Sequence record: NZ_CP014126.2
Strand: one strand, 5' to 3'
DNA: 64,000 nt
Source of the DNA: a plasmid
Under the pieces are notes generated by a model. That model was given only the letters and a program-made list of their open reading frames with translations. It made no database searches and was not told where the DNA came from. Positions within the stretch are counted from its first letter, which is position 1. The number at the start of each line of letters is the position of its first letter. Shown here piece by piece: positions 4,375 to 17,053 of the stretch. The position numbers and the translations under genes are program-made.

Positions 4375-5412
4375 TCAGATTACCCTAGCGACCGGAATAT
4401 CGCTCCAGCGCGTTGTCCATGCCGGTGACAGCATATCTCGTTTCATCTTCCACTCCGTATTCACGCCCTGACCGGCAAACCACACACTGCCGAGCCCGGA
4501 TTGATTGATCCCGTCCAGAACCTTCATCAACTGTGCGCTATTTGCACGTGGCTTATCTTCATCGAACAGGTTGAGCTGACTGACGCCGTTCGGCGTAAAG
4601 TCATCGAGCATTATCCCGGCCTTCATGTAACGTCGCCCTTCAAGCCAGATGCGATCAAGAGATCGCATGGCCACTTCAATCACGTCCCGCGTGTCTTGGG
4701 TAGGAATTGTGAGACTCTCACCGGCGCTATTGCCATAAAATATCTCACCCTGCGCATGCGGTGAGGTGCGGATAAAGACGCTGATGCGCCGGCAGAACTG
4801 CCGTTCCTTTCTGAGCTTCTCCGCAGCCCGGGTTGCGTACTGACACAGCGCCTCCTGCATCAGCACCTTCGCCGTAATTCTCTCGCCAAAGGATCGGCTG
4901 CAGACAATCTGCTGTTTAGCAGGCACAAACTCTTCAAGGGGAATACAGGATTCTCCGTTAAGTTCCCGGACAGTACGCTCCAGCACGACGCTGAAGTTTT
5001 TACGGATAAGGGCAGGGTGGGCGCGCGACAGCTGCTGGGCGTTTTCAATCCCCATCAGATTAAGTCGCTTACCGATGCGCCGGCCAACGCCCCAGATTTC
5101 CTCCACGGGCTGGTTCGCCAGCAGGGCTGCGGTGCGCTTAGGATTACCCGGCGTCAGCGCCAATACACCGCGGAACTGTGGCCACTCTTTGCTGGCCCAC
5201 TGAGCTGATTTGGCCAGAGTTTTTGTCGGCCCCATTCCAACACCGACAGTAAGGCCAGTCGTAGCCAGCACGTGCACTCGCAGGCGCCGGCCGAAATGTT
5301 CAAAGTCTTCGCAGAAATCAATACCAGTCAGGTCCAGGAACATCTCATCAATGGAATACTGCTCAACGCGGGGTGTTATCTCTTCCAGCGCGGTCATGAC
5401 GCGCTGAGACAT
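4375..5412 (-). pseudogene. umuC: umuC 3' fragment (C-terminal ~345 codons of the polymerase V catalytic subunit), severed by an insertion
   Basis: The translation aligns with residues ~78-420 of the intact UmuC at 18707-19969 (SIDEMFLDLTG vs SIDESFLDVTG; GVGFGPTKTLAKLANH vs GVGMGPTKTLAKSAQW). Only a non-coding AT-rich stretch lies upstream. The missing N-terminus is found at 16365-16607. Confidence 0.85.
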
Positions 5413-5661
5413 GCTGTGGTTTATGTGGAATGCAATTTAAACAAAAAAATAAGTTACCATTCCTCTGAAGTTTATTTTCTGAACAGGAATTATTCAGCCT
5501 TGAACCACTTCGGTATGCTTACTGGCAGGGAGGAAAGTTGACGGGTGGTAAGACATAGCCGGAAAATCGATTTCCCCGCCGGGATTTAATCTGCCATGCT
5601 TATTCTGAAGCCCTCAATCGGGCAATGCGCTTTTATCTTTCACTTTATGCAGGAAGAAATA

Positions 5662-6660
5662 ATGATAAAAAATTACAGAATCCCGGGACTGACCGCGGTG
5701 GCATTTCTCCTCATAAGTACCATCGCAGGTGCTGCAGAAGCGCGCTGGACGTTTGACGGCGATATCCACAACAATTCCCTTGCTGTCAGTCCCGATGAAA
5801 AAACGGCGGTGGCGTCCTACAGTGAGCGCTCAGACGTGGTGGTCTATGATCTGGCTGCCGGGAAAGTCAGAAAGGTGATGAAGGGCTACGTCACCCCCCG
5901 TAATGCACTTTTCTCTCCGGACGGTAAGGCCATATTTCTTTCTGACAGCAGTCTCGGCGTAGTCAAAAAAATCAGCACCGGGACGCTTGACGTGGCGGCC
6001 ACGCTGCCGCTGGGGCCCGGGGCATTCGGCACGGCCATAAGTCGTGACGGTCAGCGACTGTATGTGAATAACGAGGCCGCCAGCACGCTCTCGGTGTATG
6101 ACCTTACACATGACCGGCCCATTGCAGTTGTGACGGGTTTTGCCCAGCCCCGTCAGGGCATTAAAATCAGCCCGGACGGCAAAACCGTCTACGTCACCAA
6201 CTTTAAGGGCGATAAAATTACCCTGGTTGATGCCGTGACGGGCGACATTCGCGGCGAGATAACCGGCTTCAGCAAGCTGCGCGCCATTTCTGTCAGCGCA
6301 GACGGCCGCACACTGTACGCGGCTAACAGCGGCAGCAACACAATCGCCGTGGTTGACACGCAAAAGCACGTCATTACGGCAACCATTCCCGTGGGTCAGG
6401 ACCCTTACGGTGCCGCGCTGACGCCGGATAACCGCTATGTTTACAGCGGCAACCTTGGCGACAACAGCCTCTCCGTTATTGATACCGCCGCCGGTAAGGT
6501 GGTGTCCACCGTCACCGGACTGGATGCGCCCCGTCAGGCGATTGTCTTCAACAAGGACGGTACCCGCGCGTGGGTGCTGAATAAAGACCTCAGCATTGCG
6601 GTGGTTGACCTGAAAAAGAACCGTGTCATGGCCACGATTAAAAGCCCGCCGCAGACCTGA
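5662..6660 (+). CDS. secreted YVTN-family beta-propeller repeat protein
   Basis: Signal peptide MIKNYRIPGLTAVAFLLISTIAGAAEA. Repeated S/TxDG(K/R)xxYV(T/A)N blades: SPDGKAIFLSD, SRDGQRLYVNN, SPDGKTVYVTN, SADGRTLYAAN, TPDNRYVYSGN, NKDGTRAWVLN. An RBS-spaced ATG is at 5662; the track ORF starts at 5596. Confidence 0.75.
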   Translation: MIKNYRIPGLTAVAFLLISTIAGAAEARWTFDGDIHNNSLAVSPDEKTAVASYSERSDVVVYDLAAGKVRKVMKGYVTPRNALFSPDGKAIFLSDSSLGVVKKISTGTLDVAATLPLGPGAFGTAISRDGQRLYVNNEAASTLSVYDLTHDRPIAVVTGFAQPRQGIKISPDGKTVYVTNFKGDKITLVDAVTGDIRGEITGFSKLRAISVSADGRTLYAANSGSNTIAVVDTQKHVITATIPVGQDPYGAALTPDNRYVYSGNLGDNSLSVIDTAAGKVVSTVTGLDAPRQAIVFNKDGTRAWVLNKDLSIAVVDLKKNRVMATIKSPPQT

Positions 6661-6810
6661 CGCGAAACCTCCCTTACTCCAGCGCAGTGACGATCCTTCG
6701 CAAAGTGGGGTGGTTAATCACTTTTATAGATTTATTTTAGCTAAATAACCTGTTTTAAAGATTTACTCTGACATGCCTATAATCTTTCTGTCTACTCAGG
6801 AGATTCCGGC

Positions 6811-7971
6811 ATGAACGATAAAATATTCACCCTGCATAACGGTGCGCGTCCGCTGAGCGCGCTGAGCAGCCCGAAAGAGGCCATACGACAGTTCACGCCT
6901 AACTGGTTCGCCGCGACCATGGGGACCGGCATCCTGTCGCTGTCTCTGGCGCAGTTCCCCTGGCAGGTTCCGGGATTGCGCCTTGTCGCCGAGGGGCTCT
7001 GGATGTTTAACATCCTCCTGTTCAGCGTCTTTGCCGTGATGTATCTGGCCCGCTGGGTGATGTACTTCGGAGAGGCAAAGCGCATTTTCGGCCATTCAAC
7101 CGTGTCCATGTTCTTCGGCACCATCCCGATGGGCATGGCGACCATCATCAATGGCCTGCTGGCGTTCGGTCTTCCGCGCTGGGGCGCAGACGTTATTCAG
7201 GTGGCACACGCCCTGTGGTGGCTGGACGTGGCGATGTCGCTGCTGTGCGGCGTGTGCATTCCCTACATGATGTTTACCCGGCAGCAGCACAGTATTGACC
7301 AGATGACTGCCGTCTGGTTACTGCCGGTCGTGGCAGCCGAGGTCGCGGCGGTCAGCGGCGGCCTGCTGGCGCCGCACATTGCTGCCCCACACGCGCAGCT
7401 CGGCATCATTATTACCAGCTACGTGCTGTGGGCGTACTCCGTGCCGGTGGCGCTGAGCATCCTCGCCATTCTGCTGCTGCGTATGGCGCTGCACAAGCTA
7501 CCGCACGAAAGCATGGCGGCCTCAAGCTGGCTGGCGCTGGGTCCGATTGGCACCGGCTCGCTCGGCATGCTGGTCATCGGCGGAGATGCGCCCGGGGTGT
7601 TTGCCGCGGCGGGCATGCCGGAAATCGGTCACATCGCGCAGGGCGTGGGGTTCGTTGCCGGCATTCTCTTCTGGGGCTGCGGCCTGTGGTGGATGCTGCT
7701 GGCCACGCTGATAACCGTGCGATACTTCCGTGAAGGCATCCCGTTCAACCTTGGATGGTGGGGCTTTACCTTCCCGCTGGGCGTGTACACCGTGGCCACG
7801 CTCAAGCTGTCTACCCTGATTGACCTCGCATTCTTTAAAGGCTTCGGTGCGCTTCTTGTCGTCATACTGGCGGCCATGTGGCTGCTTGTCGCGGTGAAAA
7901 CAGTGCGTGGGGCATGGAGCGGTAAACTGTTTGTTTCTCCCTGTCTGGCAGGCCTGGATCGGAAGCCGTGA
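6811..7971 (+). CDS. TDT-family (TehA / C4-dicarboxylate / malate / Ssu1-type) anion transporter
   Basis: 386-aa polytopic membrane protein. Hydrophobicity pattern of 10 transmembrane segments; the N-terminal region PNWFAATMGTGILSLSL is typical of TehA-like proteins. Confidence 0.6.
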   Translation: MNDKIFTLHNGARPLSALSSPKEAIRQFTPNWFAATMGTGILSLSLAQFPWQVPGLRLVAEGLWMFNILLFSVFAVMYLARWVMYFGEAKRIFGHSTVSMFFGTIPMGMATIINGLLAFGLPRWGADVIQVAHALWWLDVAMSLLCGVCIPYMMFTRQQHSIDQMTAVWLLPVVAAEVAAVSGGLLAPHIAAPHAQLGIIITSYVLWAYSVPVALSILAILLLRMALHKLPHESMAASSWLALGPIGTGSLGMLVIGGDAPGVFAAAGMPEIGHIAQGVGFVAGILFWGCGLWWMLLATLITVRYFREGIPFNLGWWGFTFPLGVYTVATLKLSTLIDLAFFKGFGALLVVILAAMWLLVAVKTVRGAWSGKLFVSPCLAGLDRKP

Positions 7972-8567
7972 GTGAAACCAGCACATCGATGCAGGACTCG
8001 TTTTTACGCGAGGAATGCCTCGCGGCAGTCACCGCGCCGCATGTGGCCGCGCTGAATCGCTGGGTCAGCGGCCAGCGTCAGGCCGGTGCAGAACTGCCGT
8101 GGTTTGATCCGGCTGACGGCGGGGTTAGGGCCGGACTGCTCGTCCTGCTGCAGTCGCCGGCGCGCAGCAGCCCGTCACCGCGGTTTGTGTCGCGTGATAA
8201 CCCGGGGCCGGCCCAGCAGAACCTTGGGCGGTTTCTGGCGGAAGCCGGTATTTCGCGTCAGGACAGCGTGCTGTGGAATACGGTGCCCTGGGTCAGTCAC
8301 GGGCTGCAGAAACGGCCGTCAGCGGCGGACATCCGCAGAGGCTGCGCCTTGCTTGAGGACGTGCTGGCGTATCTGCCCGCGCTGCGCGTGGTGGTGCTGG
8401 CCGGTGCCGTAGCGGCTCAGGCCCGCGGGACGGTCAATCATCTGTACCCCGGCGTCCCCGTGTTGACGATGCCGCACCCCAGTCCGCTTTCGCTCTGCAC
8501 GAGTCCGGCGGTGACGGAAAACATTCGCCGGGTACTCTGCGAGGCACGGGCTGCGCTGGCAGGCTGA
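7968..8567 (+). CDS. uracil-DNA-glycosylase-superfamily fold protein with divergent active-site motifs
   Basis: Architecture matches family-4 UDG: motif-B-like MPHPSPLS near the C-terminus and a G-x-FLxxAGI...V(L)WNTVPW block. The canonical GE(A/G)PG motif A is replaced by LQSPA. The start GTG overlaps the stop of the transporter gene. Confidence 0.45.
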   Translation: MSETSTSMQDSFLREECLAAVTAPHVAALNRWVSGQRQAGAELPWFDPADGGVRAGLLVLLQSPARSSPSPRFVSRDNPGPAQQNLGRFLAEAGISRQDSVLWNTVPWVSHGLQKRPSAADIRRGCALLEDVLAYLPALRVVVLAGAVAAQARGTVNHLYPGVPVLTMPHPSPLSLCTSPAVTENIRRVLCEARAALAG

Positions 8568-8586
8568 GGGCGCCAGCAGAATAATA

Positions 8587-8615
8587 CTGACAGGTTTTGC
8601 AACCGGCTCTATACT
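8587..8615 (+). promoter_or_regulatory. sigma70-like promoter (CTGACA-17 nt-TATACT) driving the riboswitch-led operon
   Basis: Hexamers with 17-nt spacing sit ~10 nt upstream of the riboswitch aptamer. Confidence 0.45.
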
Positions 8616-8625
8616 CATATGACAA

Positions 8626-8680
8626 GGTGATGGCGTTCCACCTTTCCCAACCGCTCCGTTCCGGAGCTGATGACGCCTGA
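8626..8680 (+). ncRNA. fluoride riboswitch (crcB RNA motif) aptamer
   Basis: GGUGAUGGCGUUCCACC-uuuCCCAACC-GCUCCguuccGGAGC-UGAUGACGCCU matches the conserved GGnGAUGGnGUUCnnCC...AAC...stem...UGAUGAC(U/G)CCU layout. The loop GGCGU can pseudoknot with ACGCC. It sits 85 nt upstream of ppaC. Confidence 0.8.
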
Positions 8681-8764
8681 TGCGACTCTTGATTTTCAGG
8701 AGGTGCGTCAGGCCGTCCTTACTTTCTTCCCGGCCTGCGTACTTCCCTCTTCGGGGAGAGACCT

Positions 8765-9673
8765 GTGATACACGTTTTTGGCCACATCAATCCTGACAGC
8801 GACGCCATCTGCACGGCCTTCGTCACCGCGCACTGGCTGACCGGGCGCGGCATGGACGCCCGCGCATGGCGTCTTGGCGAAGCTAACCGCGAAACCCATT
8901 TTATCTTTGACACCGCCGGACTCACGCTGCCGCCACGGCTTGATATTCCGCTACAGGATGAACGGGTCTGGCTGGTCGATTTCACCGAGCCGGCGCAGGG
9001 ACCTGACGACCTGCTCCGGAGCAACATCGTGGGGATCACTGACCACCACCGGCTGGGCGGACTGATAACGCAACTGCCGCCGGAGGTACACATACGCCCG
9101 CTTGGCAGCAGCGCCACGCTGCTGTGGCTGCTTATGAACGCTGAAGCGCGACGCACGCTGCCCCCGACGCTTGCCATTCTTCTGCTGGGTGCACTCCTGA
9201 GCGACACCGTGAATCTTCGCTCGCCCACCACGACCGAAGACGATATCCGTTCGGCTACCGAGCTGGGCGTACTGTCCGGCGTAAACCGCAGAGCCTTCGC
9301 CCGTGACCTCCTTACGGCAAAAACTGACGTCAGCGGCCTCAGCGCACAGCTGCTGCTGGACAGGGACCTCAAGGCCTTCGTCATTGCCGGCACTGACGTG
9401 CGCATCGCCCAGATTGAGGTCAGCTCCCCGTCACAGGTTGCCACCGTGATGGACGACCTGCTCGCTGCCCTGGCGTATCTGGCAGACCAGTCGGGTGCTG
9501 GTTTGGCGGTGCTGATGCTGACCGACATCCGGGCCGGGTTTTCAACGCTTTATTTCGCCGGGCGGGAGAGCGTTAACGCGGCCTCCTGCTCCGTACCGGG
9601 TATGCTCAGCCGCAAAAAACAGCTTCTGCCGTGGCTTGAGTCCCGCCTCAACCAGAACGGGAGTTCATTATGA
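8765..9673 (+). CDS. ppaC: DHH-family, family II (Mn-dependent) inorganic pyrophosphatase
   Basis: N-terminus (M)IHVFGHINPDSDAIC is DHH motif I. DHH motif: GITDHHRLG. The C-terminus SRKKQLLPWL matches the PpaC C-terminal signature. GTG start follows a GGGGAGAG RBS. Confidence 0.8.
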   Translation: MIHVFGHINPDSDAICTAFVTAHWLTGRGMDARAWRLGEANRETHFIFDTAGLTLPPRLDIPLQDERVWLVDFTEPAQGPDDLLRSNIVGITDHHRLGGLITQLPPEVHIRPLGSSATLLWLLMNAEARRTLPPTLAILLLGALLSDTVNLRSPTTTEDDIRSATELGVLSGVNRRAFARDLLTAKTDVSGLSAQLLLDRDLKAFVIAGTDVRIAQIEVSSPSQVATVMDDLLAALAYLADQSGAGLAVLMLTDIRAGFSTLYFAGRESVNAASCSVPGMLSRKKQLLPWLESRLNQNGSSL

Positions 9674-10095
9674 CCTGCTACACCCATGCATTGATACTTG
9701 TGAACGATAAAGACGACGGCACCCTCCTGCTGAAGCGGGCGGTCGCGCTGGCGCAGCCGCTCGGCATGAAAATCACCCTGGCCCACATCAGCGACGACTA
9801 CCGGGAAATGAACTACGTGTCCGACAGCCTGATGGACGACGTCGTGTCGGAAGAGGTGCTGAAATCCAAAGCGTTTATGAGCGAGCTGGCGGCCTCCGTG
9901 CCTGAGACGGTAGACATGCGGGAGCTGGTGACCATGCGCCGCTTTGAGGACGTGGAGAAGTGCATCGCTGAGCTGGGCGTGGACCTCGTGCTTGCCGGGC
10001 ACCGAAACCGCTTTATGGGAATGCTGACGTCCCGCTCGGCGGAATACATTAACCACCTCACGGTGGATGTGCTTATCACTCACCTGAATGACTGA
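9670..10095 (+). CDS. universal stress protein (UspA family)
   Basis: 141 aa. HAL(I)LVNDKDDG...LAHISDD...GVDLVLAGHRNRF...VDVLITH resembles the Usp ATP-binding fold pattern. Overlaps the ppaC stop. Confidence 0.7.
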   Translation: MTCYTHALILVNDKDDGTLLLKRAVALAQPLGMKITLAHISDDYREMNYVSDSLMDDVVSEEVLKSKAFMSELAASVPETVDMRELVTMRRFEDVEKCIAELGVDLVLAGHRNRFMGMLTSRSAEYINHLTVDVLITHLND

Positions 10096-10110
10096 ACCGG
10101 GAGAAACTCT

Positions 10111-11400
10111 ATGCGCTTTACACTGGATAACGTGACCGCCCGTGAAATTCTTGACTCTCGCGGCAACCCCACCGTTGAAGTCGAAGCCCGGACCGTGGAC
10201 GGAATGATGGCGCGGGCCTCGGTGCCTTCCGGGGCCAGCACCGGCTCGCGCGAGGCCGCTGAGCGCCGCGACGGCGACGTACACCGTTTTGGCGGTAAAG
10301 GCGTACTGGATGCTGTCAGGACGGTTAATACGGAAATCTGCGAAGCCTTGCGCGGCAGGGACGTGCGCGAGCAGCGTCAGCTGGATAACATCATGCTGGC
10401 GCTGGACGGTACGCAGAGCAAGAGTCGGCTGGGTGCCAATGCCATTCTGGGCGTGTCGCTGGCGGTTGCCCGGCTGGCGGCACAGGCCTCGCACGAGCCG
10501 CTCTGGCGCTACCTGGGGGGCCTGCAGGCGAACCTGCTGCCCGTACCGTGCATGAACATTATCAACGGCGGCGTGCACGCCCGCGGTCAGGGCGCGGACT
10601 TTCAGGAGTTCATGATAGCGCCACACGGGGCACCCACGCTGCGCGAGGCCGTGCGTCAGGGCAGCGAGGTCTACCAGGCGCTGCGCCAGATCCTGCTGGA
10701 CAAGAACCTGTCCGCGGCAGTCGGCGACGAAGGCGGTTTTGCGCCCGCCGTATCGTCGAACCGCGACCCGCTGGCGTTTATCGTGCAGGCCATTGAGAAG
10801 GCGGGGTACAGGCCCGGAGAAGACATCAGCATCTGCATGGACCCTGCCTCAAGTGAGTTTTTCGCAGACGGAAAATATCATCTGCGCACGGAGGGCAGTG
10901 CGCTGAGCGCGGCGGAAATGACGGCGTACTACGGCGAGCTGATGGACCAGTTTCCCGTCATTCTGCTGGAAGACGGCCTGGCAGAAGATGACTGGTCGGG
11001 CTGGAAGCATCTGCACCAGCAGCTTGCGGGCAGGGCCGAGCTGGTTGGTGACGACCTGTTTGTCACCAACGTGAAGTACATCCAGCGCGGCATTGACGAA
11101 AACCTCGCCAGCGCCGCATTGATTAAACTCAATCAGATAGGCTCGCTTAGCGAAACGCTGGACGCCGTGGCGCTCTGCCAGCGGCACGGGTGGGGCGCGT
11201 TCATGTCCCACCGCAGTGGGGAAACGACGGACACATTTCTTGCCGACCTCACGGTAGCCCTGCGCGCGGGACACCTGAAAACCGGTGCGCCGTGCCGCGG
11301 CGAACGCGTGGAAAAGTACAACCAGCTGATGCGCATTGAGCAGGCGCTGGGTGAGGACGCTCACTATGCGGGGCTTCATGCGTTTGTGCGCCGCACGTAA
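10111..11400 (+). CDS. eno: enolase (phosphopyruvate hydratase)
   Basis: 429 aa. N-terminus (V)TAREILDSRGNPTVEVEARTVDG; SHRSGETTDTFLADL catalytic region; IKLNQIGSLSETLDAV signature. Confidence 0.9.
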   Translation: MRFTLDNVTAREILDSRGNPTVEVEARTVDGMMARASVPSGASTGSREAAERRDGDVHRFGGKGVLDAVRTVNTEICEALRGRDVREQRQLDNIMLALDGTQSKSRLGANAILGVSLAVARLAAQASHEPLWRYLGGLQANLLPVPCMNIINGGVHARGQGADFQEFMIAPHGAPTLREAVRQGSEVYQALRQILLDKNLSAAVGDEGGFAPAVSSNRDPLAFIVQAIEKAGYRPGEDISICMDPASSEFFADGKYHLRTEGSALSAAEMTAYYGELMDQFPVILLEDGLAEDDWSGWKHLHQQLAGRAELVGDDLFVTNVKYIQRGIDENLASAALIKLNQIGSLSETLDAVALCQRHGWGAFMSHRSGETTDTFLADLTVALRAGHLKTGAPCRGERVEKYNQLMRIEQALGEDAHYAGLHAFVRRT

Positions 11401-11443
11401 CAGATCCACCGGACGGCCAGCGGCCGGCACAGGAGCACAGTCT

Positions 11444-12145
11444 TTGGCACCTTCAACGCTGATTCTCCTGCGCCATGGCGAAAGCCAGTGGAACCGGGAA
11501 AACCGTTTTACCGGATGGACAGACGTGCCGCTGACGGACCGGGGGCGGCAGGAGGCTGACCGGGCCGGTGACGTGCTGCGGGACGCGGGCCTGCTGCCCG
11601 ATCGGGTCTTCACCTCGGTGATGACGCGCTGTGTTCACACGGTCTGGCGGGTGCTGGACCGTCTTGGCCGCAGCTGGACGCCCGTGGACAAACACTGGCG
11701 GCTGAACGAGCGGCACTACGGTGCGCTGCAGGGGCTGAACAAGGAAGCGGCTGCCCGGATGATGGGTGCAGAGACCGTCCGGCTCTGGCGCAAAAGCTTC
11801 AGCGGCATTCCCCCCGCGGACGCAGGGGCTCCGGCGCAGCTGCGTCGGGACCCGCGCTACAGCCGCGTTGCGCTGGCCGACCTGCCTGCGACGGAAAGCC
11901 TGGAAATGACGCTGCGTCGCGTCATGCCCTACTGGCAGCACGCCGTGATGCCGCAGATACTCTGCGGAAGTACCGTTCTGGTCGTGGCGCACGGCAACAC
12001 GCTGCGCGCCCTGGCCGCCTTCCTGGACGGCATGCCACACGACAGCTTGGCACAGTTGCATATCCCGACCGGCGTGCCGGCCGTATACCAGATGGATGCG
12101 GCCGCACAGGTCGTTTCCCGTTATGTTCTGAATATAAAAAAATAA
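11444..12145 (+). CDS. gpmA: 2,3-bisphosphoglycerate-dependent phosphoglycerate mutase
   Basis: LILLRHGESQWNRENRFTGWTDVPLT is the histidine-phosphatase RHGE motif. The probable start is TTG at 11444, 8 nt after AGGAG. The track ORF (from 11336) overlaps the eno 3' end and is probably over-extended. Confidence 0.75.
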   Translation: MAPSTLILLRHGESQWNRENRFTGWTDVPLTDRGRQEADRAGDVLRDAGLLPDRVFTSVMTRCVHTVWRVLDRLGRSWTPVDKHWRLNERHYGALQGLNKEAAARMMGAETVRLWRKSFSGIPPADAGAPAQLRRDPRYSRVALADLPATESLEMTLRRVMPYWQHAVMPQILCGSTVLVVAHGNTLRALAAFLDGMPHDSLAQLHIPTGVPAVYQMDAAAQVVSRYVLNIKK

Positions 12146-12150
12146 AAGGA

Positions 12151-12531
12151 GTGAACGTGAATCAGCTTTTTGCTGTCATCACCGGCGGTGCTTTAGGGTG
12201 TGTTATCCGCTGGCAGCTGGGCGCGCGCCTGAACGCGCTTTTTCCGGACCTGCCGCCGGGGACGCTGCTGGTCAACCTGCTGGGAGGGTTTATCATCGGA
12301 GCGGCGCTGGCGTATTTTCTGCGCCATCCCGGCCTCGATCCGGCCTGGCGGCTGCTCATTACCACCGGGCTGTGTGGCGGAATGACGACCTTCTCCACGT
12401 TCTCGGCTGAGGTTTTTGCCCTGCTGCAGTCCGGCAGCTATGCCTGGGCAGCCGCCTCGGTGCTGATACACGTGCTGGGTTCGCTGGCCATGACGGCGGC
12501 CGGATTTTATATCATGACGCTGTGTGGTTAA
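12151..12531 (+). CDS. crcB: CrcB/Fluc fluoride ion channel
   Basis: 126 aa with four transmembrane segments and the GGxTTFSTF signature (CGGMTTFSTFSAE). GTG start follows AGGAG. Confidence 0.85.
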   Translation: MNVNQLFAVITGGALGCVIRWQLGARLNALFPDLPPGTLLVNLLGGFIIGAALAYFLRHPGLDPAWRLLITTGLCGGMTTFSTFSAEVFALLQSGSYAWAAASVLIHVLGSLAMTAAGFYIMTLCG

Positions 12532-12546
12532 CCCGAGGGAGACCTT

Positions 12547-12566
12547 AGTGCAGTGACCGCTGCACT
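12547..12566 (+). terminator. stem-loop (agtgcag-N6-ctgcact) immediately 3' of crcB
   Basis: 7-bp inverted repeat 16 nt after the crcB stop. Confidence 0.4.
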
Positions 12567-12664
12567 GAGGTATATTGTTCAGAAGCGCTCTCTGCAGGCC
12601 AGACCTGACAGGGTTTACGCTTGTAATGCTTCCCGTACACCTGAGGCGCTGCTGTGAAAGAATT

Positions 12665-13078
12665 TCAGGCCTGCCTGTTCTGGTAAAGGTCCCAGCGATT
12701 GCCGTAGATGTCCTCAAATACGACAACCATTCCGTATTCTTCCTCCCGTGGCTCCTGAAAGAAGTGGACGCCTTTTGCCTTCATAGCATTGTAGTCGCGC
12801 CAGAAGTCGTCGGTCTGCAGGAACAGAAAAACCCGTCCGCCGCACTGATTGCCGATAAAGCCTTCCTGCCGGTCGTTCGACGCGCGGGCAAGAAGAATAG
12901 CACAGTCGCTGTCAGGGGCCGGCGTCACCACGACCCAGCGCTTACCCGGCTGCGGCGTGTCTTCAATGAGGGTAAAGCCCAGCTTATCGGTGTAGTACTC
13001 AATTGCACGATCGTAGTCATCGACCACGACCGCCACGTATCCCATACATCGCTTCTGTTTTCTCATCTGCTGCTCCAT
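12665..13078 (-). CDS. VOC-family (glyoxalase / bleomycin-resistance fold) protein
   Basis: MGYVAVVVDDYDRAIEYYTDKLGFTLIED...ILLARA...GRVFLFLQTDDFWRDYNAMKAKGVHF is typical of a paired betaalphabetabetabeta module. Confidence 0.65.
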   Translation of the reverse strand: MEQQMRKQKRCMGYVAVVVDDYDRAIEYYTDKLGFTLIEDTPQPGKRWVVVTPAPDSDCAILLARASNDRQEGFIGNQCGGRVFLFLQTDDFWRDYNAMKAKGVHFFQEPREEEYGMVVVFEDIYGNRWDLYQNRQA

Positions 13079-13191
13079 CAGTTACGGCATTACGCCCGTT
13101 ATAATCAGCTTTATATCAAATACGGCGTTCAGTTATCTGTACTGATTCTGCACTGATACCCTCAGACCTGACATTGTAAGCATCTGAGCAG

Positions 13192-15363
13192 TCAGGATTG
13201 TGGGCCCAATCTTGTAAGAGCCTGCTCAACCTTTTCAGCATCCTGCTCCAGTATGGCTCTCTCATCGGGAGTGAGCGGGACCTCTTCGAGGTAACGCCGG
13301 ATGGATGCTTTACTCTCCAGTATCAGCCCGCGCGCGCTATCCTTCAGCAGGTTAAAATCGCAGCCGATGCAGGCCATCCGGTGCGGGCAACTGCTCCAGA
13401 AGGGGTTCGTACAGTATGAGTCGCCCAGATCGTAGTAGGTCGCGGGCCCGGACAGGCTGGCGGCTTCAGGATCGTGGTCAACCAGCACGCTTATCATATG
13501 AGCGACCCTGTCGGCTTTGACGAACGAGGCAGCCAGCTGAGTCGGGCGGATGCGAAGATAGTGCATTGTAGACTGGGGCGTTGAATGGCCCGTCCACTGC
13601 ATCAGTTCGTACAGCGACATGCCCTGCGGTACGCTCGCCAGCGCGGTCACGGCTGAGGCCCGCCCCCGGTGGCTGGTTATCATTCCGCCACTGTCTTCAC
13701 AAGGCACGCCCGCTCTTGCGCATAGCATCGGTATCACGGTGCGGTTGAGGATAGCGCTGCCGGCAGGCTTACCCCGGTACTGAAACAGAAGCCGGACTTT
13801 CTCACCGGTTCGCTCGTCAGCGAGCAAAGCCTGTTCTGCCGGACGCTCATCCAGCCATATGTCGACGTATTTTTTCACCACGGCCGCCACCGGTTTAACA
13901 AAGGCTTTTGAGGTTTTTCCGGCAGGGATATGCAGGTAACACAGGGTTCCTGCCGGGATGATACTTCCGTCGTCCTTCACGATATCGTCCGCCTGCGGCG
14001 CGATGCACCCGGTTGTCAGGCGGAGCAGTTCGTTCTTTCTTACCCCCGCATGGGTCCAGATGACGGCCATTGCCTGCAGCATGGCCAGTGGATAATGTAT
14101 TTCAGTGAGCAGATCTTCCTGACGCAGATTGAGGCTGGCCCAGATGAGCTTCAGCCAGACCGGATCGTCAATAACACGGGGATTGACGCCGCGACGGAAC
14201 AGCGGCGTATCCGGTGTGGAAAGATGGCGGGCAGGGCTGAAGTGCAGGCGCCCCCAGCCCCAGTTTTCGTAATCAATCATAAAACGGCGCAGAGAATAGA
14301 TAAAATGCGCCCTGGAATGCGGCATCATGGGCTCGCCGGAGCGCACCGATTTGCCGGTGCCCCTTTCCGTGCCCAGCTGAAGCTCATCCACGTTCATCCG
14401 GCCTACCGCCGCAATGAAGCTGGCGCAGGTTTCCATTGTCCAGTCTGCCGGTTCCCGAACCTCCGGATGCTCCTTTTTCAGCCAGAGGCCGCAGCGCAGA
14501 ATAAAGCTGTACTGGCTTTCACGGGTGCGCGGCCTGAGCACCGACGTTTCCCGCCAGCGCCGGCACCAGTGCACCCAGGCCGGATCGACGCCTTCGACCG
14601 GCTTTTCGTACCATTTTTTATAGTTTCGCATCCTCACCGGGGCGCTGATAATCCCCAGTGCGGCAAGTGCATGTGAAACGCGGCCGACGTAACGGGATAT
14701 TCCCTTGTCTGTCCCGCTCTGGGCGCGCCAGAGGAGTTCAGGCGTAAACGTTTCAAGCCGGGGATCCCTGTTCATGATCATCAGTGTTGCCAGTATACCC
14801 GAGACATGATTTTTCTGGCTGGTCGGGGCATAACCCAGCGACGTCAGCGTATCAGTCAGCCGGTCCAGCTCCTGGTGATAAAAAGCCTGGCCGAAGATGG
14901 CAGAAGCATAGAGCGCGGGTTTACGTATATCAGGCAGGCTGAGCGGGTCATGCAAATCAGCCAGATGCCAGGCAAAAGCGGCCATTAACGGACGGCCCTC
15001 CCTGACTTCCCGGCACAGCGTCAGCCAGCGTTCCTGCGGCCAGCACCAGCAGGGCATGCCGTCTGCATGCATTTCGCGCAGCAATCCGGCTATCACCAGC
15101 CCCGTGATTTTGCTGCCGCATCCGCTTCCGGCGGCAATGTCCATCAGCGGCCTGATGAGGTCCGGCACCGGCTTCGTTCGCAGCATACGGGACCGGCTGT
15201 GAGCGCTGCTCAGTGCCGTCCGTTCAGCGAGGGTCAGTGACGCCTCAAGCCGGTATTCAGTCATGTCGAACGGATGCCGGCTGTTTTCAATCGGTGTGTG
15301 TGGGCTCATGTTATTTCTCTGTTCTGAAAATGAGGTTCGCCATCCTGATATCTGCCGTTTCAA
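13192..15363 (-). CDS. large tyrosine recombinase (723 aa) with a long N-terminal extension
   Basis: The C-terminus carries ...ITSHRGRASAVTALA... (HxxR) and ...GHSTPQSTMHYLRI (H...Y nucleophile). It overlaps the upstream small recombinase gene by 53 nt, which suggests an operon. Confidence 0.7.
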   Translation of the reverse strand: MKRQISGWRTSFSEQRNNMSPHTPIENSRHPFDMTEYRLEASLTLAERTALSSAHSRSRMLRTKPVPDLIRPLMDIAAGSGCGSKITGLVIAGLLREMHADGMPCWCWPQERWLTLCREVREGRPLMAAFAWHLADLHDPLSLPDIRKPALYASAIFGQAFYHQELDRLTDTLTSLGYAPTSQKNHVSGILATLMIMNRDPRLETFTPELLWRAQSGTDKGISRYVGRVSHALAALGIISAPVRMRNYKKWYEKPVEGVDPAWVHWCRRWRETSVLRPRTRESQYSFILRCGLWLKKEHPEVREPADWTMETCASFIAAVGRMNVDELQLGTERGTGKSVRSGEPMMPHSRAHFIYSLRRFMIDYENWGWGRLHFSPARHLSTPDTPLFRRGVNPRVIDDPVWLKLIWASLNLRQEDLLTEIHYPLAMLQAMAVIWTHAGVRKNELLRLTTGCIAPQADDIVKDDGSIIPAGTLCYLHIPAGKTSKAFVKPVAAVVKKYVDIWLDERPAEQALLADERTGEKVRLLFQYRGKPAGSAILNRTVIPMLCARAGVPCEDSGGMITSHRGRASAVTALASVPQGMSLYELMQWTGHSTPQSTMHYLRIRPTQLAASFVKADRVAHMISVLVDHDPEAASLSGPATYYDLGDSYCTNPFWSSCPHRMACIGCDFNLLKDSARGLILESKASIRRYLEEVPLTPDERAILEQDAEKVEQALTRLGPQS

Positions 15364-16312
15364 TCGCGCCAGCCATCCGGGCAGCCAGGTCCCTGCCAGA
15401 AAGATGAATATAAATCTGTGTTGTGGTCAGGTCGCGGTGTCCTGCATAGGTGGCAAGTTCGTGCAACTTCCAGCCCGCGCGGGCAAGGTGTGTGAGTCGC
15501 AGGTGCCGGAAGGTATGGGTTGAGATGTCCGGCATCCCAGACTCAAGCGCCCATTTCCGTACCGTTTTGCTCCAGGTCCAGAATGAAAGCGGCCCGCCCT
15601 GATTACGATCGGACTCAGAACGGAACAGGGCACCTCTTACGATTCCGGTCCGCTTCATCTGCATAAGGTGCGCGGCCAGCACTGGCACTACTGCCGGGCT
15701 GTAACAGACAATTCGTTCACGCCGGCTCTTGGTGGTTTCTGCCCGGATGCGGATGAGCCGGTGAGCAAAGTCGAAGTCGTCAATACTTAGCGAGGTAATT
15801 TCAGACCGACGCAGCGCGCCGTAATAGGTTAATGCCAGCATCAGGCGGTCACGCAGTGGGGAAGCGGCGGCATGATAAAGAAAACACTGCCACTGCGCAT
15901 CGTCAGGAATGCGCGGCAGCTTTACAACGCGGGGAACCAGTCCCCGGCCGGAACTCAGCATGCCGGGCGTGCCGGATCGGGGCAGCGGATTGACCGTGCA
16001 AAGATCCAGGTACATGAGAAAGTCATACCAGAGGCGGATCGCCGACAGGCGAAGCTGGAGCGTGGCGCTGGCCGCGGAAAAAGGCATCCCGGGTAACTGA
16101 GGACTAATATAGGCAGCCAGGTCTTCAAACCGCGCCTTTTCAGGTTTAATTCCGTTCTGGCTGCAGAACGCAAAGTAATGACGGAGGGCATTGCGGTAGG
16201 CTGTTAGCGTGGCCTGCGCCCGCCCCAGATCGGATAACAGTTGCAGCCAGCGCTCTGCCAGCAACAGAACGTGTTCACTCGGTGGAATCAGCATTGCATT
16301 CTCCTCTGACAA
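15311..16312 (-). CDS. tyrosine recombinase, XerD-like (333 aa)
   Basis: C-terminus HTFRHLRLTHLARAG...LATYAGHRDLTTTQIYIHL gives the complete R..HxxR..H/Y catalytic set. It is the first gene inside the right end of the element. Confidence 0.8.
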   Translation of the reverse strand: MSEENAMLIPPSEHVLLLAERWLQLLSDLGRAQATLTAYRNALRHYFAFCSQNGIKPEKARFEDLAAYISPQLPGMPFSAASATLQLRLSAIRLWYDFLMYLDLCTVNPLPRSGTPGMLSSGRGLVPRVVKLPRIPDDAQWQCFLYHAAASPLRDRLMLALTYYGALRRSEITSLSIDDFDFAHRLIRIRAETTKSRRERIVCYSPAVVPVLAAHLMQMKRTGIVRGALFRSESDRNQGGPLSFWTWSKTVRKWALESGMPDISTHTFRHLRLTHLARAGWKLHELATYAGHRDLTTTQIYIHLSGRDLAARMAGAIETADIRMANLIFRTEK

Positions 16313-16364
16313 CAGCTTTGCTGTTCAAAGTTTACTCAATCAATGTTGCATTCCACGTAACTTA

Positions 16365-16607
16365 CTAGAGCGCGTAGTTTGAACTAAAGACGTGCACACG
16401 CTCGGCAAAATCCTGATTTTTTATCTGGAACCACGGCGCGCCCATTTTAATGCCCAGCTTTTTTGCGCCGGCGCTGCGCGCGATGATGCAGCCGTCATTG
16501 TTCGACAGGACGACAACGGGCTTACCGCGCAGATCAGGGCGAAACAGTGCTTCGCAGCTGGCATAAAACGAATTGACGTCGGCCAGGCCAAACATTGGCA
16601 TGATCAC
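16365..16607 (-). pseudogene. umuC: umuC 5' fragment (first ~78 codons), fused to element-derived codons
   Basis: MFGLADVNSFYASCEALFRPDLRGKPVVVLSNNDGCIIARSAGAKKLGIKMGAPWF...HVFSSNY aligns with the N-terminus of the intact UmuC (MFALADANNFYASCETVFRPDLRGKPIVVVSNNDGCVIARSAEAKRLGVKMAAPLF...HVFSSNYEL), then ends in AL-stop. It overlaps the umuD stop. Confidence 0.85.
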
Positions 16608-17053
16608 CTCCGGCGGGCTCGGGTACTGTTGAAGAACCAGGTAACCACACCGAGCAGCTGCAGCTCCTCCGGATAAATTACCGGATAGGCCGGGTTCATC
16701 GGCAGCAGTGCGAGCCTGGGCTGCAGCTGCAGACGCTTGACCGTAAATTCGCCGTTAACCTCAGCGATCACTATGTCGCCGTGAGCCGCCTCTTCTGCCC
16801 GGTCAACCACCATGACATCACCATCGCAGAGACCGAGATCCCGCATACTGTTTCCACTGGCGCGCACGAAAAAAGTTGAGGCGCGCCGGCGAATGCAGAG
16901 CTCATTCAGATCGAGTTCTTTCTCAACGTAATCCTGAGCGGGGGAAGGGAAGCCGGCGGCGCAAGGATCAGCATACAGCGGCACCCGGACACGGGGCGTA
17001 AATATGGGTGGCCAGAGCAACGTCAGCCCGGGAGTATAGTTACCCGGATTCAT
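16604..17053 (-). CDS. umuD: UmuD, SOS mutagenesis protein (canonical, self-cleaving type)
   Basis: Cleavage-site region PCAAGFPSPAQDYVE; catalytic Ser in ASGNSM and Lys in EFTVKRLQL, matching UmuD/LexA S24 peptidases. Confidence 0.85.
   Translation of the reverse strand: MNPGNYTPGLTLLWPPIFTPRVRVPLYADPCAAGFPSPAQDYVEKELDLNELCIRRRASTFFVRASGNSMRDLGLCDGDVMVVDRAEEAAHGDIVIAEVNGEFTVKRLQLQPRLALLPMNPAYPVIYPEELQLLGVVTWFFNSTRARRR

Follow-up and report, generated by a model that had tools for sequence, protein, structure and literature searches.

A leader that resembles a fluoride riboswitch stands before five closely packed genes on a conjugative plasmid, and it raises two questions: does it belong to that class and govern the genes behind it, and how would the binding of fluoride be relayed to their expression? 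The stretch of DNA analysed, referred to here as the window, is 64,000 nucleotides long and positions are counted from its first letter. To the first question the answer is almost certainly yes, the element being a fluoride riboswitch that controls a ppaC-usp-eno-gpmA-crcB operon. The overall explanation, an ON riboswitch of the RF01734 class at the 5′ end of a sigma-70-type transcript that carries the five genes, is very probably right. The second question turns on the sequence between the aptamer and the first start codon, where two conserved helices compete for one strand.

Fluoride aptamer and promoter

The elements at the upstream end of the leader are as follows.

8587 to 8615, plus strand: sigma-70-like promoter, with the -35 element CTGACA at 8587-8592, a 17-nt spacer and the -10 element TATACT at 8610-8615
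8617 to 8686, plus strand: aptamer of a fluoride riboswitch (RF01734), assigned by covariance model, second-stem covariation and pseudoknot pairing

The preliminary description of this DNA had proposed a fluoride riboswitch here, and an Rfam covariance-model scan bears it out with an RF01734 match of 51.3 bits at 8617-8686 on the plus strand (E = 2.6e-11), which extends over model positions 1-64 of 64 and lies 17 bits above the gathering score of 34 bits; it is the sole gathering-level Rfam match in the 64-kb window. The parts of the crcB motif named in that description are all present. P1 is formed by GGUG (8626-8629) with CACC (8639-8642), a conserved AAC-containing linker joins it to the second stem, GCUCC (8653-8657) with GGAGC (8663-8667), and the loop sequence GGCGU (8632-8636) is complementary to ACGCC (8673-8677) for a pseudoknot of 5 bp. 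Where the RF01734 consensus has GGaGU/ACuCC for this pseudoknot the window copy has GGCGU/ACGCC, and is thus a compensated pair; there is otherwise no difference at the level of the aptamer. The likeness to the crcB RNA motif takes in P1, the second stem, the pseudoknot, the core nucleotides and a place in the leader 5′ of genes related to fluoride, and it further includes a competing hairpin that extends over the motif's 3′ portion. The motif and its identity as a fluoride riboswitch reportedly go back to work by Weinberg and colleagues in 2010 and by Baker and colleagues in 2012.

For comparison, relatives were gathered by a protein search with PpaC, taking one genome per species, and as the protein was the query the leaders were selected independently of their own sequence. 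In every PpaC relative of at least ~64% identity an aptamer lies 79-87 nt ahead of the start codon, the window copy being 79 nt upstream of ppaC with usp, eno, gpmA and crcB following. Six more distant relatives also have an aptamer, four recognized by a pattern search (L044, L048, L051 and L052) and two by the Rfam scan (L034 and L053). No RF01734 match was found within 5 kb in ten scanned homologues from Citrobacter, Buttiauxella and Superficieibacter (~60% identity), nor within that distance in the Ewingella homologue L050 (46% identity). A metagenome scan, for which the query was an invariant 17-mer of the aptamer and only those of the 119 matches with a complete aptamer were used, added 16 distinct leaders, 9 of which directly precede crcB and not ppaC; most of the 119 are chance matches inside G+C-rich coding regions.

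Across 36 leaders the second stem covaries (CG 21 and UA 14; CG 23 and UA 10). The pseudoknot pairs at all 5 positions in 36/36 (100% of cells) with a single change from C-G to U-G, and P1 is invariant and so uninformative for covariation. A promoter just upstream of the aptamer had also been proposed from the letters, and this holds: CTGACA-17-TATACT matches 10 of 12 consensus positions in a consensus scan, and divergent leaders with other spacer sequences again have a -35/-10 pair equally far from P1. From this recurrent distance the start of transcription is likely to be around 8622-8624, 2-4 nt before P1.

The operon

Downstream of the leader the reading frames and the end of the transcription unit were assigned as listed here.

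8765 to 9673, plus strand: ppaC, family II inorganic pyrophosphatase (DHH/DHHA2, Mn-dependent type) with a GTG start; Pfam, alignment and the RefSeq annotation of pEB102
9670 to 10095, plus strand: usp, universal stress protein family; Pfam and NCBIfam
10111 to 11400, plus strand: eno, enolase (phosphopyruvate hydratase); TIGR01060, 581.5 bits against a cutoff of 300
11444 to 12145, plus strand: gpmA, dPGM-type phosphoglycerate mutase with a TTG start; NCBIfam and RefSeq, with AGGAG 7 nt upstream
12157 to 12531, plus strand: crcB, fluoride efflux channel; NF010792, 177.8 bits against a cutoff of 125
12542 to 12571, plus strand: 13-bp hairpin between crcB and a convergent VOC-family gene, the probable operon end

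Pfam and NCBIfam confirm the five-gene set as it had been read at the outset. For ppaC the GTG start at 8765 agrees with RefSeq, which begins the gene there in the identical segment of pEB102, and the TTG start of gpmA is likewise RefSeq's choice. The genes are tightly spaced, usp overlapping the ppaC stop by 4 nt and the later intergenic gaps being 15, 43 and 11 nt. In PpaC both Pfam domains (DHH and DHHA2) pass, and its alignment with family II pyrophosphatases of known structure runs from one end to the other (E = 3e-43), the DHH and SRKKQ motifs being intact; the RefSeq label ‘DHHA2 domain-containing protein’ is due to an NCBIfam equivalog score of 269 bits, just under the cutoff of 283. 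CrcB passes TIGR00494 (107.9 against a cutoff of 80.45) as well as NF010792. Next after crcB is the VOC-family gene, at 12665-13066 on the opposite strand, and with the hairpin in front of it the operon here is one of five genes. A 193-aa ORF on the plus strand at 12575-13156, a candidate for a sixth gene, was judged spurious, as it is without a family match and overlaps the VOC gene.

Enolase and family I pyrophosphatase are the classic targets of fluoride, and enterobacteria normally depend on a pyrophosphatase of family I. Because the usual enzymes are fluoride targets, the blocked reactions would be circumvented or backed up by an induced family II pyrophosphatase and a further enolase. 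In the mechanism proposed CrcB would export fluoride, and the family II pyrophosphatase, the second enolase and the phosphoglycerate mutase would together replace or supplement fluoride-sensitive steps.

The architecture of the riboswitch-bearing loci varies. All five genes are present in Erwinia and Pantoea; the Kosakonia type comprises ppaC-usp-eno-crcB, a single Klebsiella locus ppaC-usp-crcB, and several loci only ppaC. Given this variation within the group gpmA is a clade-specific addition. It had been called an unusual one, which is true within the clade, where loci of the Kosakonia type are without it; its inclusion in such an operon is already published (PMC5533749, PMC5971314).

A published module on mobile DNA

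A strain tolerant of 4,000 mg/L fluoride, Enterobacter cloacae FRM, was isolated by Liu et al. (2017, PMC5533749), and the resistance was traced to a genomic-island operon, ppaC-uspA-eno-gpmA-crcB-orf5249, with RF01734 upstream of ppaC by Rfam scan (PMC5533749). On exposure to fluoride ppaC, uspA and eno were induced ~100-fold and gpmA and crcB ~10-fold; co-transcription was established by RT-PCR, two transcripts were reported, and deletion led to loss of the resistance, the operon being necessary for resistance at a high level (PMC5533749). Compared by published description, the window has the same order of five genes, RF01734 upstream of ppaC and a setting in mobile DNA of an enterobacterium. 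In FRM the operon is chromosomal with transposases on either side, and a further small ORF, its sixth, is co-transcribed; in the window a conjugative plasmid carries it, within a cassette flanked by tyrosine recombinases, and the convergent VOC gene lies beyond its hairpin. By analogy with this fluoride-induced orthologous operon, the operon in the window would be expected to respond to fluoride. As a source of the two FRM transcripts a hairpin after eno was considered and rejected, being weak in the window (z = -0.08); at the same place in homologues the hairpin is strong, with 7-14 bp.

In 2018 the same gene set was described on R4′, a mobile fragment of the Pantoea vagans plasmid pPV989-94 (PMC5971314). 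The features in common with the window are gloA/VOC, crcB, gpmA, eno, uspA, ppaC, ung, a mae1/TDT transporter, a lactonase-like gene, an integrase and a recombinase (PMC5971314). The window copy (segment 8500-13200) is instead 100% identical to Erwinia billingiae pEB102, to an Erwinia persicina plasmid and to several plasmids of Pantoea agglomerans, with 92-93% identity to other Pantoea plasmids; the identity to a 93,831-bp plasmid from a blood isolate of Pantoea vagans is 92.2%. Similarity to pEB102 spans ~4405-16981 at 97%, and this span includes a lactonase-like gene, a transporter of the TDT/SLAC1 family, a gene of the uracil-DNA glycosylase family, the operon, the VOC gene and two tyrosine recombinases. 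The operon lies within a cassette of ~12.6 kb that is flanked by recombinases and carried by a conjugative Pantoea/Erwinia plasmid; positions 40000-64000 are an F-type transfer region with 99.7% identity to a Pantoea agglomerans plasmid. A megablast search of 5,426 complete E. coli genomes did not find the operon, and what it did find was a fragment of the VOC gene on one plasmid.

Since the gene order with RF01734 was shown in FRM (PMC5533749) and the cassette on a Pantoea plasmid (PMC5971314), the operon and its switch are not new. The searched literature yielded nothing beyond these two reports that combines a fluoride riboswitch with enolase, pyrophosphatase and phosphoglycerate mutase. 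The expression platform is not described in PMC5533749, and neither PMC5533749 nor PMC5971314 analyses riboswitch control of expression.

Two competing helices in the expression platform

Between the aptamer and the GTG start the leader has the following features.

8668 to 8721, plus strand: OFF-state compound hairpin, 8668-8683 pairing with 8705-8721 around an internal hairpin (8686-8692/8696-8702); predicted dG -29.4 kcal/mol
8703 to 8742, plus strand: ON-state hairpin, 8703-8715 pairing with 8731-8742, with U8708 bulged; predicted dG -16.3 kcal/mol
8718 to 8732, plus strand: pyrimidine-rich tract CUUACUUUCUUCCCG, directly 3′ of the OFF-state hairpin and a possible weak intrinsic termination site
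8742 to 8758, plus strand: Shine-Dalgarno hairpin, CUUCCC (8742-8747) pairing with GGGGAG (8753-8758); predicted dG -7.2 kcal/mol

The OFF-state helix came from unconstrained folding of the leader, and its 5′ arm includes the pseudoknot strand ACGCC. Because both use 8705-8715, the OFF-state and ON-state hairpins are mutually exclusive. A possible hairpin with the arms caggccg and cggcctg had been pointed out between the aptamer and the GTG start, and it is real, with arms at 8709-8715 and 8731-8737 and not at 8709-8733 as first given; nor is it isolated, as it is the inner part of the 8703-8742 hairpin, one arm of a proposed two-state switch.

The ON-state hairpin is supported by comparison. 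Among 22 distinct leaders 6 of its 11 pairs have changed on both sides with 93.8% of cells paired, and with 36 leaders the figures are 7 of 11 and 91.1%, against 30-50% pairing in a control in which the partners were slid by 1-3 columns. The core of the OFF-state helix, 8 pairs, is paired in 36/36 leaders; substitutions occur at 5 positions, 2 of which changed on both sides, and its covariation comprises few independent events. Positions 8705 and 8706 covary with both of their partners, as expected of a switching strand. That strand, segment B, is common to both helices and has an invariant UCAGG that matches an invariant CCUGA 3′ of the pseudoknot, a sequence outside the Rfam consensus. The same two helices are present in leaders of the crcB type. 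Two designed conformers are 5.4 kcal/mol apart before the energies of pseudoknot and ligand are counted, and in such models, which disregard the pseudoknot, the ligand and co-transcriptional kinetics, this gap appears reasonable for a switch.

At the position of the Shine-Dalgarno hairpin other leaders have complementary sequences that differ from those in the window, CUCCCU/AGGGAG in L017, UUCCUGA/UCAGGAA in L048 and CCUCUG/CAGAGG in L098. The minimum-energy fold further contains an 11-bp helix between the distal pyrimidines at 8723-8733 and the Shine-Dalgarno region; with only 52-68% of cells paired it is poorly conserved, and for that reason it was set aside and is not relied on here.

Ribosome-binding site and termination

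Between the modelled states the unpaired probability of the Shine-Dalgarno sequence rises from 0.00 to 0.11 only, the local hairpin keeping it mostly paired, and since the two values are so nearly equal a measure of opening energy was used instead. By this measure the cost of opening the ribosome-binding site in the window drops by 5.7-7.0 kcal/mol when the 3′ strand of the pseudoknot is blocked. In the control the 5′ aptamer was blocked in both states, so that what was withheld was just the 10-nt pseudoknot strand, ~90 nt upstream, and the cost then falls from 14.4 to 8.6 kcal/mol. When the stretch in between was shuffled 100 times, no shuffle gave as large a difference as that in the window, and across the comparative set the effect exceeds 0.5 kcal/mol in 32/36 leaders, with a median of 2.7.

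For the crcB motif generally, predicted terminators often overlap its 3′ part. In the window the tract after the strong hairpin (-29.4 kcal/mol), CUUACUUUCUU, is interrupted and has 5 U in its first 8-9 nt. A consensus terminator scan of the leader reported nothing, and as it allows only loops of 3-8 nt it is blind to the compound hairpin there. Among relatives the U content at the tract position ranges from 2 to 8 of 9: the homologues L034, L053 and L147 have canonical U-runs (7-8 of 9), and leaders of the Kosakonia/Klebsiella type keep both helices with the U-tract absent (2 of 9), from which it follows that intrinsic termination is not the clade-wide mechanism. In the window copy it is plausible, but probably weak. 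A trade-off between the quality of the U-tract and the translational relay, which seemed plausible on 23 leaders, was rejected once the set had grown to 36 (Spearman rho 0.09, p = 0.61). The segment 8716-8751 is C-rich and G-poor, with C 15 and G 4.

Proposed mechanism and its alternatives

The mechanism favoured, which sequence, covariation and energy models make likely, is an ON switch that combines weak termination with partial opening of the ribosome-binding site. Transcription from the sigma-70-type promoter would begin at ~8622 and place the riboswitch at the 5′ end of the transcript. Without fluoride the pseudoknot would be unlocked, and 8668-8683 would pair with 8705-8721 to give the compound hairpin of about -29 kcal/mol; the interrupted U-rich tract after it would favour premature termination, and the downstream pyrimidine-rich segment, being free, would sequester the ribosome-binding site more tightly. 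With fluoride present the pseudoknot would retain ACGCC and 8703-8715 would switch to 8731-8742, so that the terminator-like hairpin would be blocked and the modelled cost of opening the ribosome-binding site would be lower by about 6-7 kcal/mol. That both layers, termination and translation, operate in the window copy is put forward tentatively, at somewhat less than an even chance.

The alternative that survives best is a switch acting on translation only, without intrinsic termination in the leader: with fluoride absent the ribosome-binding site would be kept closed, and the effects on mRNA would come from Rho, which would terminate in the untranslated C-rich, G-poor leader (8716-8751) and early ppaC, or from decay of the message by RNases. 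It is unlikely, and yet draws on several of the observations above: the U-tract is interrupted here and absent from Kosakonia-type leaders that have both helices, the modelled opening cost falls in 32/36 leaders, and a segment with C 15 against G 4 (8716-8751) precedes the start codon. Translation-coupled Rho control is, moreover, common among enterobacterial riboswitches. The Rho control of enterobacterial riboswitches is said to have been treated by Bastet and colleagues in 2017. The large changes in mRNA reported for the FRM operon are also in keeping with this alternative. Against it stand the Shine-Dalgarno sequence, largely paired in both of the modelled states, and L034, L053 and L147, which carry the same helices together with canonical U-run terminators.

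Less probable again is control by intrinsic termination only, in the style of the crcB riboswitch of Bacillus cereus, with the 8703-8742 and Shine-Dalgarno hairpins constitutive and serving, for example, stability. The 5′ arm of the OFF hairpin is the 3′ strand of the pseudoknot, the classic layout, and there are 5 U in the first 8 nt past the stem. The 3′ arm of the 8703-8742 hairpin would be transcribed past the putative termination point, and because it would be made so late that hairpin could not act as a kinetic antiterminator. Against these points, the U-tract is poor here and is lost in close relatives that retain the helices, and the strong covariation of the 8703-8742 hairpin, together with its use of nucleotides that also belong to the OFF helix, is hard to explain if that hairpin does not switch. 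Finally, that the aptamer is a decayed relic, with the operon constitutive or under another regulator, is very improbable indeed, in view of the full-length and high-scoring RF01734 match, the intact state of every pseudoknot and stem pair, the 100% identity of the segment across several plasmids with conservation across genera, and the induction of the orthologous operon by fluoride.

Relation to other fluoride riboswitches

The transcriptional crcB riboswitch of Bacillus cereus is an ON switch in which the 3′ strand of the pseudoknot is at the same time the 5′ arm of the competing hairpin, and in both respects the window copy is like it. The differences are that the hairpin in the window is compound, with an internal hairpin, that its U-tract is interrupted, and that a second conserved hairpin competes for its 3′ arm and is followed by a Shine-Dalgarno hairpin. 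The fluoride riboswitches of Pseudomonas syringae eriC-F and of Burkholderia pseudomallei, proteobacterial as is the one in the window, gave no termination in vitro and are treated as translational.

It is possible, at only a little under an even chance, that enterobacterial fluoride riboswitches, whether of ppaC operons or of crcB alone, share this platform of two mutually exclusive helices, in which the 3′ strand of the pseudoknot pairs with segment B or segment B pairs with a third segment, C, followed by a Shine-Dalgarno hairpin, the module being used with or without a U-tract. The conserved two-helix relay, common to enterobacterial leaders of the ppaC and crcB types, is the modestly new item in this analysis; the searched literature yielded no account of this relay.

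Implications

As to its genes, the window adds a further annotated example of a fluoride-resistance module already in the literature, and conjugative plasmids carry this module between species of Erwinia and of Pantoea at an identity of 100%. As to its regulation, the platform model, which can be tested by mutation, offers an account of how a proteobacterial fluoride riboswitch may relay ligand binding to expression, a matter left open in 2017, and it is relevant to biosensors based on fluoride riboswitches in Gram-negative hosts. Should the sharing of the platform among enterobacteria prove true, the same arrangement of helices could underlie intrinsic termination in one lineage, translational control in another, and the two together in a third.

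Fluoride riboswitches with and without ppaC

In metagenomes there are also fluoride riboswitches that lie directly upstream of crcB rather than of ppaC, at nine of the compared loci (L098, L109, L117, L135, L137, L147, L177, L180 and L197). The invariant 5′ half of their aptamers is identical to that of the ppaC-type leaders and, as in those leaders, both of the competing downstream helices are present. Conversely, there are ppaC homologues that are free of the riboswitch. No fluoride riboswitch is present within 5 kb of ten chromosomal homologues of approximately 60% identity from Citrobacter, Buttiauxella and Superficieibacter (L020, L021, L024, L026, L027, L029, L031, L037, L042 and L049), or within 5 kb of the more distant Ewingella homologue, L050 (46% identity), and none of the remaining operon genes adjoins any of these homologues. 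Fluoride regulation of the family II pyrophosphatase of these enterobacteria is therefore not universal. Just upstream of the Ewingella homologue (L050 4573-4800, minus strand) there is a C4 antisense RNA with its a1/b1 target, of the P1/P7-phage type (Rfam RF01695 and RF03163), which has no relation to the fluoride riboswitch finding.

Hairpins 3′ of eno and crcB

Immediately 3′ of the eno stop codon, most of the homologous operons examined have a G+C-rich hairpin (the loci concerned are L002-L004, L007, L009, L010, L018, L051 and window 11401-11443). Its stem is 12-14 bp in the four-gene Kosakonia-type loci, which lack gpmA, and 7-9 bp in most other five-gene loci examined, while the window's own version (11414-11426) is degraded to CGGCC/GGCCG (z = -0.08). 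In Enterobacter cloacae FRM the ppaC-usp-eno transcript was reported to be the more abundant one (PMC5533749), and the hairpin could be its 3′ end.

The convergent crcB and VOC genes are separated by a perfect 13-bp hairpin, ACCTTAGTGCAGT...GCTGCACTGAGGT (12542-12571). No clear U-run accompanies it on the plus strand, and it may either terminate transcription in both directions or serve as a processing site. The 193-amino-acid open reading frame 3′ of crcB (12575-13156, plus strand) has no family match, overlaps with the VOC gene annotated on the opposite strand and is probably not a gene.

The cassette and its plasmid

Window 40000-64000 encodes conjugative transfer functions of the F type (traC, traG, traN, traB, traH, traU and others) and shares 99.7% identity with Pantoea agglomerans plasmid NZ_CP134722.1, so the source of the window is a conjugative Pantoea-type plasmid. 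A segment of about 12.6 kb (~4405-16981) is also present in Erwinia billingiae pEB102, with 97% identity overall and 100% over 8500-13200. Together with the operon it contains:

Genes accompanying the fluoride operon in the cassette
lactonase-like gene
6811-7971, anion transporter of the TDT/SLAC1 family
7968-8567, uracil-DNA glycosylase family gene
12665-13066, convergent to the operon, VOC/glyoxalase-family gene
13192-15363, minus strand, first of two tyrosine recombinases
15311-16312, minus strand, second tyrosine recombinase

This cassette is the vehicle in which the fluoride operon travels.
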